In this document: in pieces, positions 1 to 32,628 of the stretch
Layout of the letters: each line of letters opens with the position of its first letter
How positions within the stretch are numbered: position 1 is the stretch's first letter
NCBI GenBank assembly: GCA_026394835.1
Contig: JAPLZW010000048.1
Coordinates: forward strand, 1-37,543
Direction: 5' to 3'
Source of the DNA: Candidatus Wolfebacteria bacterium
GTDB lineage: Bacteria > Patescibacteriota > Minisyncoccia > UBA6257 > UBA9933
DNA: 37,543 nucleotides
Notes under the pieces: generated by a model
Databases searched by the model: none
What the model was told of the DNA's origin: nothing
The model's input: the letters and a program-made list of their open reading frames with translations, nothing else
Program-made: the position numbers and the translations under genes

Positions 1-895
<895 letters not shown>

Positions 896-1073: not shown

Positions 1074-1189
1074 AACGGGCGCATCGAAACCCGACATTGT
1101 TGTTCGCATTGGTCGTATTTCAATTCAAGTTCAGCGCAAACGCGCCGGCATTCGAACCATTGTTCCAATTGCCGCCGCGAATGAAGACG
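1074..1189 (-). repeat. DGR template repeat (TR)
   Basis: Aligns without gaps to 1641..1756 at an offset of 567. All 20 mismatches are T on the plus strand of TR, which is A in the coding sense. 20 of the 27 such positions differ. Read in the VR frame, TR is rich in AAT/AAC codons and contains an in-frame TGA, so it is non-coding. Confidence 0.93.
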
Positions 1190-1248: not shown

Positions 1249-1596
1249 TTAAAATTTTTTCCGCCAGGCCCCCAACAATCTCCCTATCTCAATAAGCTTC
1301 TCCGAAGCGGCTTTATAATGCGGAAAACTGATTCCTCCTTCTTTATTGTATTCATGCCCGGCCCTTATCAAGATTTTTATCATCTCTAAAATTGTCAAGC
1401 ACTCGACGATTTCCTTTTCTCTGCCGTCTCTCGACATATTGGATCTTATAATTTGTTTTAAAAGATTTACGGTTTCGTTTTCAAGCTGTATCCCAAGGCT
1501 GTATTTATGAACTTTGGCAAGATGCCTGACAACTGTTTTCTGCCAGACGAAAAAATCATAAGTTTTCTGAAACGCAATCAAATCTTCAATGGCCAT
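1249..1596 (-). CDS. avd: DGR accessory variability determinant (Avd), a small four-helix-bundle protein
   Basis: 115-aa basic helical ORF lying between the target gene and TR, the canonical Avd position and size. The sequence style (YDFFVW..., LLKQIIRSN, LIEIGRLLGAWRKK) resembles Avd and 23S-rRNA-IVS-like four-helix-bundle proteins. Confidence 0.8.
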   Translation of the reverse strand: MAIEDLIAFQKTYDFFVWQKTVVRHLAKVHKYSLGIQLENETVNLLKQIIRSNMSRDGREKEIVECLTILEMIKILIRAGHEYNKEGGISFPHYKAASEKLIEIGRLLGAWRKKF

Positions 1597-1638: not shown

Positions 1639-3090
1639 TCAACGGGCGCAACGAAACCCGACACCGCTGCTCGCACTGGCCGCACCCCAAACCAAGTTCA
1701 GCGCAAACGCGCCGGCAACCGAACCATCGCTCCAAAGGCCGCCGCGAAAGAAGACGGTCGTCCCCTGATTGGCTCCGGTGCCGTAGGTGTAGACCCGCCC
1801 TACGCCCTGATTGGAGTTCCACGAAGTGTTGGAGGGACCGACATTGGCCTGCGCCACATCGGCGCTCCACGCGGAGATGTATGGCGTAAGGGAACTGCCA
1901 TACTGACCCCAGTTCCAGTTTGCTGCGCCATCGGAACGGGCAGGCAGAGCCATAGTGGTCGTAAGGTCGCCCGCGTTATTCACGCTCCTTTGGACGTGCT
2001 GCCAGACGTTGCCCGCGAAATCCCACACGACCGAGCCGTTTGAAAGCGTAAGCGTTCTTCGCTGGTTGCCGCCCTGATTCGTTTCACCCGCATAGCCGTT
2101 TGAGTCATTAAGGTCGGCTGTCAAGGCGTAAGCCGGAACGTTGTCGTTGTGGCCGGAATACATATATCCGGAACCAAGGGCTCCACCCGACCAATTCCCG
2201 GAAACCTGCTCGGCGTTTCTTGCGATTGTCATATATTCGTCATTCGTCAAAAGGTGCGCGCCCAAGGACTGGCAGTAAGTGAGAGCGGTATTGTGGCTGA
2301 TGTAGGTGATGGGATAGCCGTCCGGAGTGGAAGCGATATATTTGCCGTTTGCCGAGGTGCAGGGAGCGCTGGAATCGTAGTAAGTGTGGTAGCCGCTGTC
2401 GGGCGAGTTTAAGGGCGTATTATTTGAGCCCTGGACGCACTTCGCGTCATATTTCATCACCCAGAAATCAGACGTGCCGAAAGCGCCGTTGCCCGGAACT
2501 TTAACCCAGCCCGAAGGGAAAACCGGGCTTCCCAAAGACATATCCGTTCCCGCCTCAAAAGCCTGGGAAGCGGTGCCGCCGTCCAGCCTGGCTTTTGATT
2601 GATATTTGTCGGACTCAAGAACCGCGAGGACTTTCCAGCTTCCGCCCGGAATATATTCGTAGTAATTGTATGTGGATGTCGCGTTTATGGGGTCAACCGG
2701 CAGTTTTTCCAATGGCGCGCCATAGGAGACCAAGGTGAAATTCAGCGGTATCCAGCCGGTGCCGTTTATATTCCGGAGAGTGGAACTTGTGACGCAGACG
2801 TAAGTCCAGCCATAAGGCGGAGTTGGCAGACCCAAGTCCGAACAATTGGTTTGGTTAGATGGGATGGAAACGTAAATCGTATTCACTGTCCCAAGATTTG
2901 TCTGGCCCGAAGACTGATAAACTGCCAAAGCTTTGTTCAGAGTCGCCAAATCAGCCATGCGGTTGCTATCCCGAGACTGCTTTATGAGTTCCAGGGGATT
3001 CAAAGTCACAACCGCGACTGTGGCAAGGACGGCGAGAATGCCTATCACGATGAGAAGCTCGATTAAAGTAAAGGATAATTCCCTGTTCAT
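1639..3090 (-). CDS. DGR target protein: type IV pilin-like N-terminus fused to a C-terminal FGE-sulfatase/C-type-lectin-fold domain that carries the VR
   Basis: The N-terminus MNRELS/FTLIELLIVIGILAVLATVAVV matches the prepilin cleavage/methylation motif, with Glu at +5. It is followed by a pilin-style helix (LIKQSRDSNRMADLATLNKAL). The C-terminal half has the FGE/CLec signature (ALTYCQSLGAHLLTNDEYMTIA ... RGGLW ... GFRCAR). Confidence 0.88.
   Translation of the reverse strand: MNRELSFTLIELLIVIGILAVLATVAVVTLNPLELIKQSRDSNRMADLATLNKALAVYQSSGQTNLGTVNTIYVSIPSNQTNCSDLGLPTPPYGWTYVCVTSSTLRNINGTGWIPLNFTLVSYGAPLEKLPVDPINATSTYNYYEYIPGGSWKVLAVLESDKYQSKARLDGGTASQAFEAGTDMSLGSPVFPSGWVKVPGNGAFGTSDFWVMKYDAKCVQGSNNTPLNSPDSGYHTYYDSSAPCTSANGKYIASTPDGYPITYISHNTALTYCQSLGAHLLTNDEYMTIARNAEQVSGNWSGGALGSGYMYSGHNDNVPAYALTADLNDSNGYAGETNQGGNQRRTLTLSNGSVVWDFAGNVWQHVQRSVNNAGDLTTTMALPARSDGAANWNWGQYGSSLTPYISAWSADVAQANVGPSNTSWNSNQGVGRVYTYGTGANQGTTVFFRGGLWSDGSVAGAFALNLVWGAASASSGVGFRCAR
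1641..1756 (-). repeat. DGR variable repeat (VR) at the 3' end of the target gene
   Basis: Counterpart of TR. Encodes ..VFFRGGLWSDGSVAGAFALNLVWGAASASSGVGFRCAR*. TR Asn codons correspond to L, S, D, V, V, G, S, S, S and G in VR. Both copies share the 3' block GGGTTTCG(A/T)TGCGCCCGTT and diverge just past the stop codon. Confidence 0.93.
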
Positions 3091-8297: not shown

Positions 8298-11200
8298 TTA
8301 TTTTACTTTTTTTATTCCGGCCCAGACTTTTTTGCCGTCAACATTGGTTTCGGTTTCGGCGTCGAATTTATCCGTTTTTGAAAATTCAACCCGCTCCGCG
8401 CCCACCCTATCTTTGAATATTTTCAAATTGTTGGAGATCGGCCATTCCAATTCTTTAAACATCTCAAACCATAAAGAAATTTTATCTTTTGGCGTGTAGC
8501 CGGCTTCCTGGCGCAAACCTTGGACCAGCCTGACAAAGTCCCTTAAAATTCCCTCTTCTTTCAATTCCGGCGTGATATTGGTGTCTAATTCCACTTCGCC
8601 GCTTATCTTGGAATCAAAAATGATTTCTTTAACGTTAATTTCGTCTCTTAAAATTTCCAACAATTCTTCTTTATTCTTTATTCTTAATTCTTTATTCTTA
8701 ATTCTTAGCGAAGCTAATGGCTGCCTAACTCTCATTCCGGCTTTTTCGCGGGCTTCAAGCCCCAATGAAGCCAATCTCCTTACATCCTTCATTTGCTCCA
8801 ACAATAATCTTACTTCTCTATTCTTACCTCTTATTTCTTTAAACTTGGGCCACCCGGAAAGGTGGACGCTCTCTTTATTCCCTAATTTAAAATTAAGCCA
8901 CTCGGCCATAAAAGGCATAAACGGCGCCATTACTTTGGAAAATTTTTCGAGAACGTATCTTGTGGCCACCACGGCTTCAGCCTTATCTTTGCCGGCTGAT
9001 TTAAATCTGTCCCGGGAACGGCGCACATACCAAGTTGAAATATCATCCACAAAATCAGACAATGGCCTAACCGCCTTATCAAGCTCGTAATTATCCATCG
9101 CCTTCCCCGCTTCGTTTGCCAGTTGTTCCAACCGCGCGATAATCCACGTATCTAAAACGTTATTGGTTTTTGGCCGTTGGTTATTAGTCGTTGGTCGTTG
9201 GTCGGATGCGTACATTTCGTAGAAACTCACAACATTCGCGAGCCGTAGAATCAGTTTCTTATAGATTTCATCAACGCCTTTTTCGGAAAAATTCAGGTCT
9301 TCGGCGCGGACCACGGGTGATGACAAAAGATAATAACGTAAGGCGTCGGCGCCATATTTATTGACGACTTCCATGGGATCAGGATAATTTTTCAAACGCT
9401 TGGACATCTTCTGGCCGTTCTCCGCGAGGATGATGCCATTCACAACCACGTTTTTGTAGGCCGGTTTCTTAAAAAGGGAAGTTGCCAGAACAAGCATTGT
9501 GTAAAACCAACCGCGCGTCTGGTCTATGCCCTCGGCAATAAATTCCGCCGGAAAATTCTTTTCAAACTTCTTTTTATTCTCAAAAGGATAATGCGCCTGG
9601 CCGTAAGGCATAGCGCCGGATTCAAACCAGCAGTCAAAAACATAATTTTCGCGTTTCATTTTCCCGTGGCACTTTTCGCACGCAAACTCAACTTCATCAA
9701 TATATGGCCGGTGTAAATCCAATTCGTAATTTTTGTTATGCGGCAAAGGAGAAAAATCCAAAGATTTCAGCTCGCCCCGTTTTATGAAATCGTCTTTCGT
9801 GCCGCGCATCTCAATGCTTTTTTCGACACCAGCCCCTTCCGCGCCGGCGATCATAAGCCACAATGGATATTCGTGGCTGACTATCAGGATATTTTTATCT
9901 TTGTATTTTTTATCGATATCATAAAGAAATTCCGTAACGCGGTTTTTGAGCTTAATAAGATTCTCTCCCTCCGGCGGATTCTTTGTGAATTTTTCCAAAA
10001 GCGAGGAAAAATAATTATCATAGTCCCGGTAATATTTGCCGTCGAAGATGCCCACATCCACCTCCATAAGCCGTTTATCAAAGATAACATCGCTTTCGCG
10101 TAAGCCGACCTCCTTTGCCACCAACTCCGCGGTTTCTTTGGCTCTCGCAAGCTCCGAAGAAAAAATTACATCCGGCTTTTTGCCTTTGAGCTCTTTCAGT
10201 AATTTTTGGGCCGAAGCCCGGGCTTCTTTCTTTCCTTTTTCCGTAAGATGATATTTCGCGGCGGCTTTAAGGGTTGCGGCGGAAATTTCAGCCACATTAT
10301 TTTCCGATTCGCCGTGGCGCATCACAAAGTATTTATTCCCCGAATTTATGGAATTCTCTTTGATATCTTTTATAGACCCGACTATTTTCCGCTTCCCGCA
10401 TTTTTCGCACTTCCAGACCGGCAACGGCGCGCCCCAGTACCTTGTCCTTGAAATCGCCCAATCCGGGGCATCTTCCAGGATTTTTCCGAACCTGCCTTTT
10501 TTCACGTGTTCCGGCACCCAATTTACTTTTTTATTATTTTCCAGCAATCCACCCTTTCCTTTTTTGATGGCGGCGATATCCAAAAACCAGGAATTAGCCG
10601 CGTAATTCAAAAGAGGAGTATCGCACCGCCAGCAATGAGGATAAGAATGTTTTATTTTCTCAACTCTCAAAAGTTTGCCTTGCCGCGTAAGCAGATCGAT
10701 TATTTTAAGGTCGGTTTCCTGCGGATTTCCCTTGGGCTTCACCTGAAGTCCCGAGAAATCCGAAACTTCCGGCTTGAATCTGCCATCCATGCCAACGTGC
10801 TGGATAAAAGGAAGATTATTTTTTTTGCCCAAAGCCATATCATCCGCGCCGAAAGCCGGCGCGATATGCACGATGCCCGTGCCTTCATCCGTCGAAACAA
10901 AATCTCCGGCGTAAATTTTCCAACCCTGCTCACGATTTTCTATTTTTTTATCTCTAGTGTAATAATCAAAGAGTGATTTATATTTTTTGCCGATAAGTTT
11001 TTCTCCTTTTATTATTTCTAAAATGTCGTAATCACCATCTATTACCACAAGCCGTTCTCTCGCAAGAATATATTTTTCGCCAGTCTTACTTCTTAATTCT
11101 TTATTCTTAATTCTTATAGTTACGTATTCAATCTTCGGATTCACCGCCAAAGCGACATTGCCCGGCAATGTCCACGGCGTCGTAGTCCATGCCAGGAAAT

Positions 11201-11861
11201 AAGTTCCGGGTTCGTCAACTGACTCAAATTTTACGTAAACCGATGAATCTTCAATGTATTTGTATCCCTGCGCCACTTCAAAATTGGAAAGTGTGGTTTC
11301 ACAACGCGGGCAGATCTGCATTGATTTATATCCTTCATAAATCAGCTTCTTGCCAAAAAGAGTTTTAAAAATCCACCACACGGATTCCGTGTAGCTCGTG
11401 TCCATAGTCTTGTAATCATGCTCCATATCCACCCAACGTCCCATCCGAGGGATAATTTCCTTCCAATCGTCAACGTATTTTAGAACCTCTTTTCTAGCTT
11501 CTTCGTTAAAATTCTCAACCCCGTATTTTTCGATATCCTTTTTGGTTTTGAGATTGAGTTTCTGCTCAACGATATTTTCAATCGGCAAACCATGGCAATC
11601 CCAGCCCCATCTCCGTTCTACGCGAAAACCATTCATTGTTCGGTAGCGCGGGATGACGTCTTTAATGGCGCTCGCGATAATGTGGCCGTAATGCGGCAAG
11701 CCGGTCGCAAAAGGCGGACCGTCGTAAAAAACATAATCCTTCTTGGGATTTTTACCGGCAGGCTTATTAACCGATTTTTCAAAAATTTTATTATCCTGCC
11801 AGTATTTGAGGATTTTTTGCTCTATTTCCGAAATTTTAGAAGTTTTAAAATCGCCGAACAT
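8298..11861 (-). CDS. ileS: Isoleucyl-tRNA synthetase (type 2) with an inserted histidine-phosphatase domain. The ORF is open to 11894, but Met-12 (11861) fits the conserved N-terminus.
   Basis: PPFATGLPHYGH (HIGH), KMSKRL (KMSKS), WTTTPWTLPGN editing-domain motif, and CxxC zinc knuckles. The 1198-aa ORF is longer than I would expect for an IleRS, from memory. See the insert at 9729..10343. Confidence 0.93.
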   Translation of the reverse strand: MFGDFKTSKISEIEQKILKYWQDNKIFEKSVNKPAGKNPKKDYVFYDGPPFATGLPHYGHIIASAIKDVIPRYRTMNGFRVERRWGWDCHGLPIENIVEQKLNLKTKKDIEKYGVENFNEEARKEVLKYVDDWKEIIPRMGRWVDMEHDYKTMDTSYTESVWWIFKTLFGKKLIYEGYKSMQICPRCETTLSNFEVAQGYKYIEDSSVYVKFESVDEPGTYFLAWTTTPWTLPGNVALAVNPKIEYVTIRIKNKELRSKTGEKYILARERLVVIDGDYDILEIIKGEKLIGKKYKSLFDYYTRDKKIENREQGWKIYAGDFVSTDEGTGIVHIAPAFGADDMALGKKNNLPFIQHVGMDGRFKPEVSDFSGLQVKPKGNPQETDLKIIDLLTRQGKLLRVEKIKHSYPHCWRCDTPLLNYAANSWFLDIAAIKKGKGGLLENNKKVNWVPEHVKKGRFGKILEDAPDWAISRTRYWGAPLPVWKCEKCGKRKIVGSIKDIKENSINSGNKYFVMRHGESENNVAEISAATLKAAAKYHLTEKGKKEARASAQKLLKELKGKKPDVIFSSELARAKETAELVAKEVGLRESDVIFDKRLMEVDVGIFDGKYYRDYDNYFSSLLEKFTKNPPEGENLIKLKNRVTEFLYDIDKKYKDKNILIVSHEYPLWLMIAGAEGAGVEKSIEMRGTKDDFIKRGELKSLDFSPLPHNKNYELDLHRPYIDEVEFACEKCHGKMKRENYVFDCWFESGAMPYGQAHYPFENKKKFEKNFPAEFIAEGIDQTRGWFYTMLVLATSLFKKPAYKNVVVNGIILAENGQKMSKRLKNYPDPMEVVNKYGADALRYYLLSSPVVRAEDLNFSEKGVDEIYKKLILRLANVVSFYEMYASDQRPTTNNQRPKTNNVLDTWIIARLEQLANEAGKAMDNYELDKAVRPLSDFVDDISTWYVRRSRDRFKSAGKDKAEAVVATRYVLEKFSKVMAPFMPFMAEWLNFKLGNKESVHLSGWPKFKEIRGKNREVRLLLEQMKDVRRLASLGLEAREKAGMRVRQPLASLRIKNKELRIKNKEELLEILRDEINVKEIIFDSKISGEVELDTNITPELKEEGILRDFVRLVQGLRQEAGYTPKDKISLWFEMFKELEWPISNNLKIFKDRVGAERVEFSKTDKFDAETETNVDGKKVWAGIKKVK
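8664..8707. repeat. Heptamer tandem array (ctttatt/cttaatt, about 6 units) in frame near the ileS 3' end
   Basis: ctttatt|ctttatt|cttaatt|ctttatt|cttaatt. Encodes LRIKNKELRIKNKEE. It shares a 27-nt identical core with 11090..11116. Confidence 0.9.
9164..9205. repeat. Heptamer tandem array, 6 units (42 nt), in frame in ileS
   Basis: ttggttt|ttggccg|ttggtta|ttagtcg|ttggtcg|ttggtcg. Encodes DQRPTTNNQRPKTN. Confidence 0.9.
9729..10343 (-). other. Histidine-phosphatase (phosphoglycerate-mutase superfamily) domain nested within IleRS, aa ~518-722
   Basis: YFVMRHGESENN (RHG catalytic motif; the His codon is at 10314..10316), SSELARAKETA, LMEVDVGIFDG and LIVSHEYPL. The domain is flanked by IleRS CEKCG (aa 496-500) and DLHRPYIDEVEFACEKCHG (aa 726-743). 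Confidence 0.8.
11085..11119. repeat. Heptamer tandem array, 5 units, in frame in ileS
   Basis: cttactt|cttaatt|ctttatt|cttaatt|cttatag. Encodes TIRIKNKELRSK. Confidence 0.9.
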
Positions 11862-11996
11862 AGTAGGAGTAATCGCGAATAACGCGAATATCAATTAAAT
11901 AATGCGAATGCTTAAAAAATAAATTAGCATTATTCGCTGGAATTCGCATTATTAGCGAACACTATTTAAAATAGCGGAAAAACGGCGTTTTGTCTA

Positions 11997-27042: not shown

Positions 27043-28401
27043 CTAGAATAATCTTTGCTGCTTCACTAAGTCCTTGGCTTTGATTTCGGCTTCGTTTAAG
27101 AAAATCATATGGCCGTATTCGCCATCATAGCCCGCGGGGTCAAATCTGATTTCCCCTTTTCTTATCGCCTCAATCCCCTTTACCACTTTTTCATGAACCT
27201 TGCCTTCCAAATCATTAATACCTGCCTCCATCAAAATATTGAACTCGCCTCCGAATTCTCTGATTAATTTATCGTATTCAACTTTCACTTTCTTGGAGGC
27301 AACCACCGTGCCCAGTGCTTTCGCAATCACTTCGTCCAGCGGCACCAAACTGTAATACGGAACGCGGTTTTCGTATTTATGGATATAGCCCTCGTCTTCC
27401 AGTTTGGGTAATGGCCTATCGGCTAATTCCTCCACGCGGTTTAAAACTCCGATCACAAGCGGCTTGCCGCACACAGGGCAAATACCGTTAATCTTTTTGG
27501 TTTCCGCGGGCTCCATATGGACATTGCAAAGCCTGTGGCCGTCTATGTGATATTTGCCTTCTTCGGGAAAGAATTCAATTGTTGCCACAAATTTTGGTTT
27601 CTCGTCTTTTCCGGCTGCCTTGCGTCTGTTCGGCGAACCGCTTTTTATAGCTTCAATAATCCCGCCATAAGAAAGTTCCGTATCAAAAATATTGGCCTCC
27701 CTGCCGATTCGGGGCAATGAATGCGAATCCGAGTTGGAAATTAAAGCCACGTTGTCCAGTTTTGAAAACCGCCAGTTCATCGCGGGATCGCTGGATAATC
27801 CGGTTTCAATCGCAAAAATGTATTGCGCGTATTCGCCGAAACATTCTTCAATGGAGTCAAATCCCGACATTGAGCCGAAAACCGAAAACCACGGCGTCCA
27901 GGCATGGGCCGGAATAATCACGGACTTGGGGTTCGCGTCCATCGCGATTTTCAGGATCTCGCGGCTATCAAGTCCCAGAATCGGCCGGCCGTCGGAGATG
28001 ATATTACCCGCCCAGCCCAGCTGGATATTTATTTTTTCCACGGTTTCCATATCCGGAGCGAATATCAGATTATGAACGCGATAGCCTCTTTTGATTCCGG
28101 TTTTGGGAGATACGCGCGAATATATGCTTGAGACTTCGGTTGTAAGAATAAAACGCGTTTGCGATTCGTCCCCGCGGATAGTCGGGCGCTTGAATTCTTT
28201 TTTTAATTTAAAAAGCCCGGGCTCAGCGGGCTCAAGCTTATTCTTGATTTCCTTAATCCAGGCGGGATGAGTGAAGTCACCGGTCGTCATTACGTCCATG
28301 CCTTTATCGTGCGCCCAGCGGTCAAGTTCCTCCAAGGTCATCTGGGGGCTCGTGGCGCGGCTGTATTTGGAATGAATATGCAGGTCGGCGATGAATTTCA
28401 T
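27043..28401 (-). CDS. PHP-domain endonuclease Q (EndoQ)-like protein
   Basis: MKFIADLHIHSKYSRA PHP N-terminus, TGDFTHP, IPAHAWTPWFS, NSDSHS, and a CPVCGKPL zinc finger. Confidence 0.7.
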   Translation of the reverse strand: MKFIADLHIHSKYSRATSPQMTLEELDRWAHDKGMDVMTTGDFTHPAWIKEIKNKLEPAEPGLFKLKKEFKRPTIRGDESQTRFILTTEVSSIYSRVSPKTGIKRGYRVHNLIFAPDMETVEKINIQLGWAGNIISDGRPILGLDSREILKIAMDANPKSVIIPAHAWTPWFSVFGSMSGFDSIEECFGEYAQYIFAIETGLSSDPAMNWRFSKLDNVALISNSDSHSLPRIGREANIFDTELSYGGIIEAIKSGSPNRRKAAGKDEKPKFVATIEFFPEEGKYHIDGHRLCNVHMEPAETKKINGICPVCGKPLVIGVLNRVEELADRPLPKLEDEGYIHKYENRVPYYSLVPLDEVIAKALGTVVASKKVKVEYDKLIREFGGEFNILMEAGINDLEGKVHEKVVKGIEAIRKGEIRFDPAGYDGEYGHMIFLNEAEIKAKDLVKQQRLF

Positions 28402-32552: not shown

Positions 32553-32556
32553 CGGG

Positions 32557-32628
32557 TGGGCGTGGATGGGATCGGACCATCGACTTCCGCTTTATAAGAG
32601 CGGCGTTCTACCACTGAACTACACGCCC
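32557..32628 (-). tRNA. tRNA-Ile with anticodon TAT (UAU)
   Basis: Minus-strand read GGGCGTG TA GTTC AGTGGTA GAAC G CCGCT CTTATAA AGCGG AAGTC GATGG TCCGATC CCATC CACGCCC A. The four-arm cloverleaf is clean. The anticodon-loop centre is TAT. The T-loop reads TCC where TTC is usual. Confidence 0.8.

Follow-up and report, generated by a model that had tools for sequence, protein, structure and literature searches.

A probable modular type IV pilin is the target of a chromosomal diversity-generating retroelement in a Wolfebacteria genome

The stretch of DNA analyzed here, referred to as the window, covers the contig JAPLZW010000048.1 (37,543 bp) in full; it comes from the genome assembly of a Candidatus Wolfebacteria bacterium (GCA_026394835.1), a member of the Patescibacteria or candidate phyla radiation (CPR; Parcubacteria/Paceibacterota). 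One end of the window carries a diversity-generating retroelement (DGR) – a target gene followed on the same strand by the accessory gene avd, a template region (TR) and a gene for a reverse transcriptase (RT). The protein encoded by the target gene begins with a prepilin-type signal and ends in a variable region (VR) within a module of the fold shared by C-type lectins (CLec) and formylglycine-generating enzymes (FGE), and it is probably a bimodular, or 'modular', type IV pilin that the DGR diversifies. The exact sequence of this protein had no database record on look-up. The features of the cassette, all on the minus strand, are:

1–895, minus strand: DGR reverse transcriptase gene, cut by the contig end and in two frames, split by a (GA)22.5 tract at 468–512.
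1074–1189, minus strand: TR, an Asn-rich (AAY) template with a TGA codon opposite the scaffold residue Trp468.
1249–1596, minus strand: avd accessory gene, 115 aa (Pfam bAvd PF22296, 1.6e-15).
1639–3090, minus strand: DGR target gene, an open reading frame (ORF) of 483 aa; modular type IV pilin-like, with a pilin module and a C-type-lectin/FGE module that carries the C-terminal VR.
1642–1755, minus strand: VR, aa 446–483 (38 residues), VFFRGGLWSDGSVAGAFALNLVWGAASASSGVGFRCAR; part of a 116-nt repeat with the TR.
1642–2523, minus strand: C-type-lectin/FGE-sulfatase-fold module, aa ~190–483, assigned from PF03781, Foldseek and a profile match to TaqVP.
2524–3072, minus strand: pilin module, aa 7–~189, with an alpha-1 helix (aa 9–60) and a predicted beta-rich head with conserved Cys83/Cys99.
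3010–3090, minus strand: class III (prepilin) signal, aa 1–27, with leader MNRELS, predicted cleavage before Phe7, Glu at +5 and a hydrophobic alpha-1N segment.

The VR and the TR are the two copies of the 116-nt repeat, at 1641–1756 and 1074–1189. Read in frame, they differ at 15 codons, and each difference within the VR falls at an adenine of the TR, mostly in AAY codons. The VR is poor in adenine (6% A), as is expected after adenine mutagenesis. The N-terminal part of the RT is the ORF at 443–895, and the C-terminal part (YCLKCDISKYF...YMDDF) is stop-free in another frame; the RT contains a YMDD box, and its identity to the RTs of related cassettes is 65–82%. No further copies of the VR, which would indicate targets in trans, were found in the 37,543-bp window.

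The N-terminus of the target protein, MNRELSFTLIELLIVIGILAVLATVAVVTLNP, was described in a first-pass annotation of this DNA as a prepilin signal with leader MNRELS, Ser at -1 and Glu at +5, leading into a pilin alpha-1 helix. Profile searches bear out both points. Pfam N_methyl (PF07963) scores 24.6 bits on aa 1–26 (gathering cut-off 21.2), and NCBIfam TIGR02532 (IV_pilin_GFxxxE) matches with 18.4 bits against a cut-off of 16.3. The alpha-1N segment, FTLIELLIVIGILAVLATVAVV, has Phe at +1, where type IV pilins have Phe or Met, and the characteristic Glu at +5. When a profile of the family was compared with the sequences in the PDB, pilins were matched over positions 8–106 – Geobacter PilA-N at 7.5e-9, Thermus PilA at 3.3e-7 and GspG at 1.1e-5. 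The target scores far under the cut-offs of the equivalog models for GspG, PilA and others, and TIGR01710, for the major pseudopilin GspG of the type II secretion system, matches only the common N-terminal helix (21.4 bits, cut-off 88.85). Residue invariance was judged on 26 homologues, in which F7, T8, L9, E11, L12 and L13 do not vary. Over 43 distinct N-termini of the family, position -1 is occupied by Gly (24 cases), Ser (10) or Ala (9), and Phe+1, Thr+2, Leu+3 and Glu+5 are invariant. The motif [G/S/A]|FTL[IV]E is present in 46 of the 56 complete ORFs in a set of 80 metagenome loci, gathered with an alignment of the lectin module.

A full-length AlphaFold2 (AF2) model of the target, built on the same number of homologues (26; pLDDT 81.1, pTM 0.82), has helices at aa 9–29 and 32–60 with a break at an invariant Asn-Pro, then a beta-rich region to about aa 235 (pLDDT about 85–95), and then a domain of the FGE type. 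Low confidence is limited to two loops, 401–411 and 454–457, the second of which is inside the VR. The region that follows the helix had been noted as about 250 residues rich in Gly, Thr, Ser and Tyr. Such a stretch exists, but it is not a linker: it is conserved and is modelled as folded. Among its invariant residues are Y73, C83, C99, GW112–113, P131-D133-P134 and ES159–160, as well as the motif VPG...FGT...VMKYEAKC, which opens FGE-type domains. The stretch is better seen as a predicted pilin head (aa ~61–189) to which the opening ~50 residues of the FGE-type domain are joined.

The C-terminal part of the protein had been assigned an FGE-sulfatase/C-type-lectin fold whose last 38 residues are the VR, and three kinds of evidence agree with this. 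Pfam FGE-sulfatase (PF03781) matches aa 242–371 with 27.2 bits (cut-off 23.3), so that the 483-aa protein is above the Pfam cut-offs for a pilin domain at one end and for a lectin-type fold at the other. In a Foldseek search of the PDB with the full-length model, the variable proteins TaqVP of Thermus aquaticus (5VF4, 7.8e-7) and Mtd of a Bordetella phage (1YU4, 8e-6) outrank all formylglycine-generating enzymes and EgtB. The family profile also aligns with TaqVP across the lectin fold and places the VR of the target on that of TaqVP itself, and the 38 residues are those that lie within the TR-VR repeat.

The target belongs to a large family. A word-indexed search in which 8,000 candidates were scored found 977 homologues at E<=1e-5, with proteins counted as 90% clusters. 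The best 120 are mostly full-length (a few are truncated), 47–66% identical and mostly annotated with PF07963 and PF03781. Where a source organism is named, it is a member of the Paceibacterota or Patescibacteria. Twenty-five pilin-type loci have 3 kb or more of sequence downstream (termed well-flanked); in 11 of them (~44%), avd and/or RT adjoin in the order target-avd-TR-RT. In the in-register TR/VR pairs of the DGR-linked loci, the mismatches are overwhelmingly at adenines. The other neighbors of the relatives are housekeeping genes that differ from locus to locus, and no pil operon surrounds the family at the loci examined.

Natural variation is visible in two clusters at 90% identity, P0080 and P0014, both with Ser at -1, each of which has 11 full-length members from different samples. 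Of the 11 VRs per cluster, 9 are distinct in one and all 11 in the other; 16–17 of the last 38 positions are variable, and the hottest of these have 4–7 alleles. In the rest of the protein, variation is confined to 29 of 428 positions and 8 of 439, none with more than 3 alleles. This concentration of variation in the VR is, at the level of sequence, direct evidence of DGR activity in close relatives of the target.

The DGR cassette of a close relative, P0003 (loci L120 and L121), contains additional genes. Genes for GIY-YIG endonucleases and a ParE toxin interrupt the series of target, avd and RT – in L120 only, one GIY-YIG copy lies between target and avd – and a 788-aa VirD4/TraG-like ATPase is encoded immediately upstream of the target.

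The pilin part of the protein is found in other combinations. An exhaustive search of 1.84 billion cluster representatives with the family profile gave 2,755 clusters at E<=1e-30, and the best 150, which were inspected, fall cleanly into three groups: about 20 full-length matches of 464–510 aa, many proteins matched only at profile positions ~190–492 (the lectin module), and dozens of proteins of ~345–445 aa, representatives of clusters at 50% identity, matched only at positions ~8–200, with E-values of ~1e-72 to 1e-77. In dozens of these ~400-aa proteins the pilin module ends at profile position ~196–205, as it does in stand-alone pilins of ~190 aa. Seven of the ten proteins sampled from the third group combine N_methyl with Laminin_G_3, a concanavalin A (ConA)-like lectin domain; one combines it with the ALK/LTK glycine-rich domain (ALK_LTK_GRD), and two have heads without an assignment. 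A scan of genome contigs with the full-length alignment was dominated by the generic pilin N-terminal pattern and gave N-terminal matches only; it still yielded two informative loci from metagenome-assembled genomes (MAG). In one of these (L002), the same pilin module, 44% identical over aa 1–186, is fused to Laminin_G_3 (5.6e-20). The other, from a Saccharibacteria MAG (L003), encodes tandem stand-alone pilins of ~190 aa that are 42% identical and end exactly where the lectin module starts. At a further locus (L051), a paralog beside a family member fuses the pilin module to a Fibrinogen_C/COLFI-like head.

By these comparisons the pilin part (aa 1–~189) is a separable, self-contained module. 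The loci L002, L003 and L051 and the proteins P0332–P0413 indicate that heads have been exchanged on a single CPR pilin scaffold. The domain composition of the target is that of a modular pilin – N_methyl plus FGE-sulfatase, on a carrier that also occurs stand-alone and with other heads – and follows the pairing of carrier and effector to which Raynaud et al. gave this name.

Variants of both modules were also seen outside the typical architecture. One protein of the family (P0070) has two consecutive FTLVELL helices within one ORF, and near-identical pilin genes lie back to back, as tandem duplications, at several CPR loci (L003, L009 and L017). The CLec/FGE module also turns up in very large multi-domain proteins (900–3,761 aa; P0274, P0282, P0285, P0307 and others), each with as many as 9 stretches that match, and four DGR-linked relatives that are not pilins (L072, L073, L076 and L102) exceed 1,000 aa.

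The best explanation of these data, held with moderate confidence, is that the target is a bimodular type IV pilin diversified by a chromosomal DGR. The nearest precedents are PilB and PilC of Streptococcus sanguinis, modular pilins with adhesive modules that have been modelled at the pilus tip (Raynaud et al. 2021, PMC8179133; Shahin et al. 2023, PMC9934059). PilC is a lectin-bearing protein of 52.8 kDa that keeps Glu5, and its capping partner PilA lacks Glu5 (PMC9934059). We infer the following course for the target. The Sec system would insert the prepilin, which alpha-1N would hold in the membrane, and a CPR prepilin peptidase would remove the short leader. The pilin module would then be built into a type IV filament, for which a tip complex is the likeliest position, because a head of ~30 kDa is hard to fit in the body of a filament and Glu5 is kept as in PilC; since PilC is modelled at the tip and has Glu5 too, retention of this residue does not argue against a tip location. 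The lectin-fold face would thereby be displayed outward. With the RT in frame, mutagenic retrohoming from the TR would rewrite ~14 VR codons, giving a population with many binding specificities for ligands on host cells or particles. Type IV pili are described as ubiquitous in the CPR and have been implicated in host attachment (PMC10221324, PMC9938205).

Several observations weigh against this explanation. There is no pilB, pilC, pilD or pilM on the 37.5-kb contig, which is the extent of the search for pil genes in this genome, and genes for a prepilin peptidase, an extension ATPase or a platform protein are likewise missing there and beside the relatives, whose neighbors are housekeeping genes. 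The leader of the target ends in Ser and not in the Gly or Ala of type IV pilins, and a review states that the prepilin leader 'invariably' ends in one of these two (PMC10191384). Judged from the family tally, Ser at -1 is a recurrent small-residue variant, and it may be argued to be functional because it recurs, including in lineages with demonstrably active DGRs. The N-terminal 235 residues modelled by themselves with AF2 gave a poor result (pLDDT 56.6), and Foldseek with that model gave no match at E<3, so the predicted fold of the pilin head remains unconfirmed. Solvent exposure of the VR is predicted only from homology to TaqVP. Fourteen of the 25 well-flanked family members have no DGR nearby. 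In the window itself, the RT gene is intact except for the (GA)n tract, and the downstream two-thirds of the gene is out of frame. Finally, the TR codon at ~1121–1123 is TGA, opposite the near-invariant VR scaffold residue Trp468, and a faithful copy of the TR would therefore cost the target its last 16 residues. In most related TRs, this codon is TGG. The locus with the closest avd (L050) has TGA in both TR and VR, and its target has that premature stop.

Some of these points favor a different explanation, the main rival, in which the protein is a surface receptor anchored in the membrane, or part of a very short pseudopilus, and the pilin-like N-terminus is a signal-anchor, cleaved or not, with no long pilus involved. 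The absence of assembly genes from the contig and the neighborhoods of the relatives would fit such a receptor, as would the scattered position of the gene among housekeeping genes and outside any pilin operon. The non-canonical Ser at -1 may impair cleavage, and the head, at ~295 aa, is bulky. Against this, Phe+1 and Glu+5 are invariant, and these residues matter for processing and for the docking of subunits, whereas an anchor by itself would not need them. The same pilin module is found in the Laminin_G_3 modular pilins, which have the architecture of S. sanguinis PilC, a protein located experimentally at the tip, and the stand-alone homologs of ~190 aa resemble ordinary pilins. A receptor is accordingly regarded as unlikely, though it deserves more attention than the two explanations that follow.

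A second alternative is that the target gene was recently acquired by horizontal transfer and has an ancestry apart from that of avd, the RT and the host genome. The first-pass annotation had pointed out that the target is richer in GC than avd, the RT and the flanking kinase genes and had suggested separate ancestry as a reason. A comparison of GC content and codon usage confirms the excess – the target has a GC content of 0.55 (0.64 at third codon positions, GC3), compared to 0.385 for avd, 0.444 for the N-terminal part of the RT, 0.42 for the two kinase-like flanking genes and 0.441 for the window. All other genes examined in the window have a GC content of 0.385–0.48 and a GC3 of 0.42–0.556. 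Transfer would also fit the different housekeeping contexts that the cassettes occupy in different genomes. However, the excess is a property of the family: members are richer in GC than their flanks in 66 of 67 loci, by a mean of 6.7 points, in hosts that range from ~27% to ~59% GC. It is alike in DGR-linked (+6.8) and unlinked (+5.4) members, and in all 27 of the cassettes compared, avd and the RT have a lower GC content than the target beside them. GC at second codon positions (GC2; 0.51, compared to 0.33–0.39) reflects a composition rich in Gly, Ala, Ser, Thr, Pro and Trp, and the low A and high C at third positions are not specific to this genome. As the excess is family-wide, separate ancestry is unsupported, and recent transfer is improbable enough to be rejected.

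The bias at synonymous sites is strong in its own right. Third-position A is 0.118 in the target and 0.20–0.30 in the other genes, and third-position C is 0.386; the bias extends over the whole gene, well outside the VR. Expression level, adenine avoidance and amino-acid context are candidate causes.

The remaining alternative, an exported enzyme of the FGE/SUMF1/EgtB type, is suggested by the PF03781 match above cut-off, by the name 'SUMF1/EgtB/PvdO family nonheme iron enzyme' that NCBI gives to some homologs and by the presence of FGEs and EgtB among the Foldseek matches, but it is very unlikely indeed and is rejected, as TaqVP and Mtd, which are DGR variable proteins and not enzymes, give the best matches in both structure and sequence and the segment before GFRCAR is the hypervariable VR, which the DGR rewrites and in which Cys481 is the sole Cys. 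In FGEs, the segment before the conserved GFRCA motif holds the catalytic Cys pair (Cys336/Cys341 in the human enzyme). The target has only six Cys residues – C83, C99, C218, C244, C273 and C481 – and a pair of the FGE/EgtB type is absent from its C-terminal segment.

The (GA)n tract in the RT is a perfect repeat of 22.5 units at 468–512 (reported by Tandem Repeats Finder as (CT)22.5, 100% perfect) and is the only dinucleotide microsatellite on the contig. The frame of the RT could be restored by the addition of one GA unit or the loss of two. In related cassettes, (GA)n tracts that differ greatly in length occupy precisely this position, between RT motifs 1 and 2. The tract is out of frame at seven related loci (L039, L040, L045, L055, L064, L093 and L110) and in frame at two (L041 and L050), and two others (L042 and L114) have short remnants. 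With the window included, there are 10 long tracts, of which 8 are out of frame. In more distant RTs, a non-repetitive linker of 18–45 nt takes the place of the tract. The tract may therefore be a phase-variable ON/OFF switch on the RT, operated by slipped-strand mispairing. As the RT is out of frame at (GA)22.5, diversification is probably off at present in the genotype that was sequenced. Assembly noise at the repeat, or transcriptional slippage, could also account for the frameshift. No literature on a (GA)n switch of this kind in a DGR RT was found.

A broader and more tentative proposal is that a large clade of the CPR/Patescibacteria uses type IV pili to display a DGR-programmable lectin, with one carrier for heads that are static (LamG, fibrinogen-like) or hypermutable (CLec) and with an RT gated by the phase-variable (GA)n tract, as two-level bet-hedging in the search for host cells. 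This is possible, but it is held with less confidence than the modular pilin.

Parts of this picture are already on record: CLec-fold DGR targets, modular pilins, the N_methyl-FGE architecture and DGR-diversified tips of Type V pili. The architecture is listed as IPR012902-IPR005532 (N_methyl plus sulfatase-modifying-factor) for 8 proteins in Dataset S1 of Raynaud et al. 2021 (PMC8179133). A 'GspG-type pilin' domain has been named in passing among the rare domains of DGR targets (PMC11661182). According to Roux et al. 2021, DGR targets of the CPR (clade 2) typically lack a recognizable transmembrane or conserved domain (PMC8144416). No literature tying type IV pilins, or a large CPR family of modular pilins, to DGRs was found in the sources covered, which did not include the CPR survey of Paul et al. 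2017.

The target resembles S. sanguinis PilC, with its ConA-like lectin module, and PilB, with its von Willebrand factor A (vWA) module, in having a class III signal, Glu5, a small carrier and a bulky C-terminal ligand-binding module. It is also alike in size (processed PilC is 52.8 kDa, the target ~50 kDa), and both organisms are of the monoderm type. The heads of PilB and PilC are genetically static, whereas that of the target has a C-type-lectin/FGE fold with a binding face that the DGR would rewrite. Unlike PilB and PilC, the target has Ser at -1 and sits outside a pil operon. With TaqVP (5VF4) and Mtd (1YU0–1YU4), the target shares a C-terminal VR, AAY codons, adenine-only mismatches and an adjacent avd-TR-RT. 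Mtd is the tip of a phage tail fiber, and TaqVP matches only the lectin-fold part of the target, not the pilin part; among the three, the target alone fuses the CLec module to what is probably a type IV pilin carrier.

Two other systems diversify pili. In the tip pilins of the Bacteroides Type V pilus (Macadangdang et al. 2024, preprint, PMC11601372), a DGR likewise rewrites the CLec head of an adhesive pilin. Type V pilins are lipoprotein precursors assembled by strand exchange in the diderm Bacteroidota, whereas the target has a class III signal and an alpha-1 helix; phylum and ecology also differ. In Neisseria, as in the target, a dedicated genetic mechanism diversifies a type IV pilin. There, the mechanism is gene conversion of pilE from silent pilS cassettes, the protein is the major pilin, and the role is mainly immune evasion; the target would undergo adenine mutagenesis by an RT, has a grafted lectin and is probably a minor pilin.

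DGRs are strikingly enriched in the CPR, and this family bears on where and how their targets act there. For one large group of these it supplies an answer that is concrete and can be tested, as the signal and carrier would place the VR face on a type IV filament, an organelle already implicated in the attachment of episymbionts to their hosts. If this is true, it explains how at least part of the repertoire of CPR DGR targets reaches the cell surface, and the concept of the modular pilin would be extended from a static head to a genetically programmable one. The parallel with the Bacteroides Type V tips suggests that pili have come into use convergently to display binders evolved by DGRs. The recurrence of Ser at -1 questions the Gly/Ala rule for substrates of prepilin peptidases.

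The rest of the contig is mostly occupied by housekeeping genes, including those for isoleucyl-tRNA synthetase, a Xer recombinase, serine hydroxymethyltransferase, FolD, RecA and FtsK. It also encodes ComEC with a partner of the metallo-beta-lactamase fold, MnmA, EF-P, a Cu-ATPase, FtsH and an S1 protein. A second pilin motif is absent from all frames of the contig. A functional link between ComEC and the target was considered and is not favored by any evidence; the two genes are 18 kb apart, with unrelated housekeeping genes between them.

Three further features of the contig were noted. A 452-aa ORF at 27043–28401 (minus strand) has no Pfam match, and its score to the hypothetical-equivalog model TIGR00375 is under the cut-off (177.9 and 326.6 bits, respectively). 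The isoleucyl-tRNA synthetase (8298–11894, minus strand; 1,198 aa) contains a complete histidine-phosphatase domain (His_Phos_1, 1.4e-30), inserted at aa 523–693, inside its catalytic core. Bacteria normally decode AUA with a lysidine-modified tRNA that has a CAT anticodon. The contig encodes a tRNA-Ile with the anticodon TAT (32555–32628, minus strand), which is unusual for bacteria.

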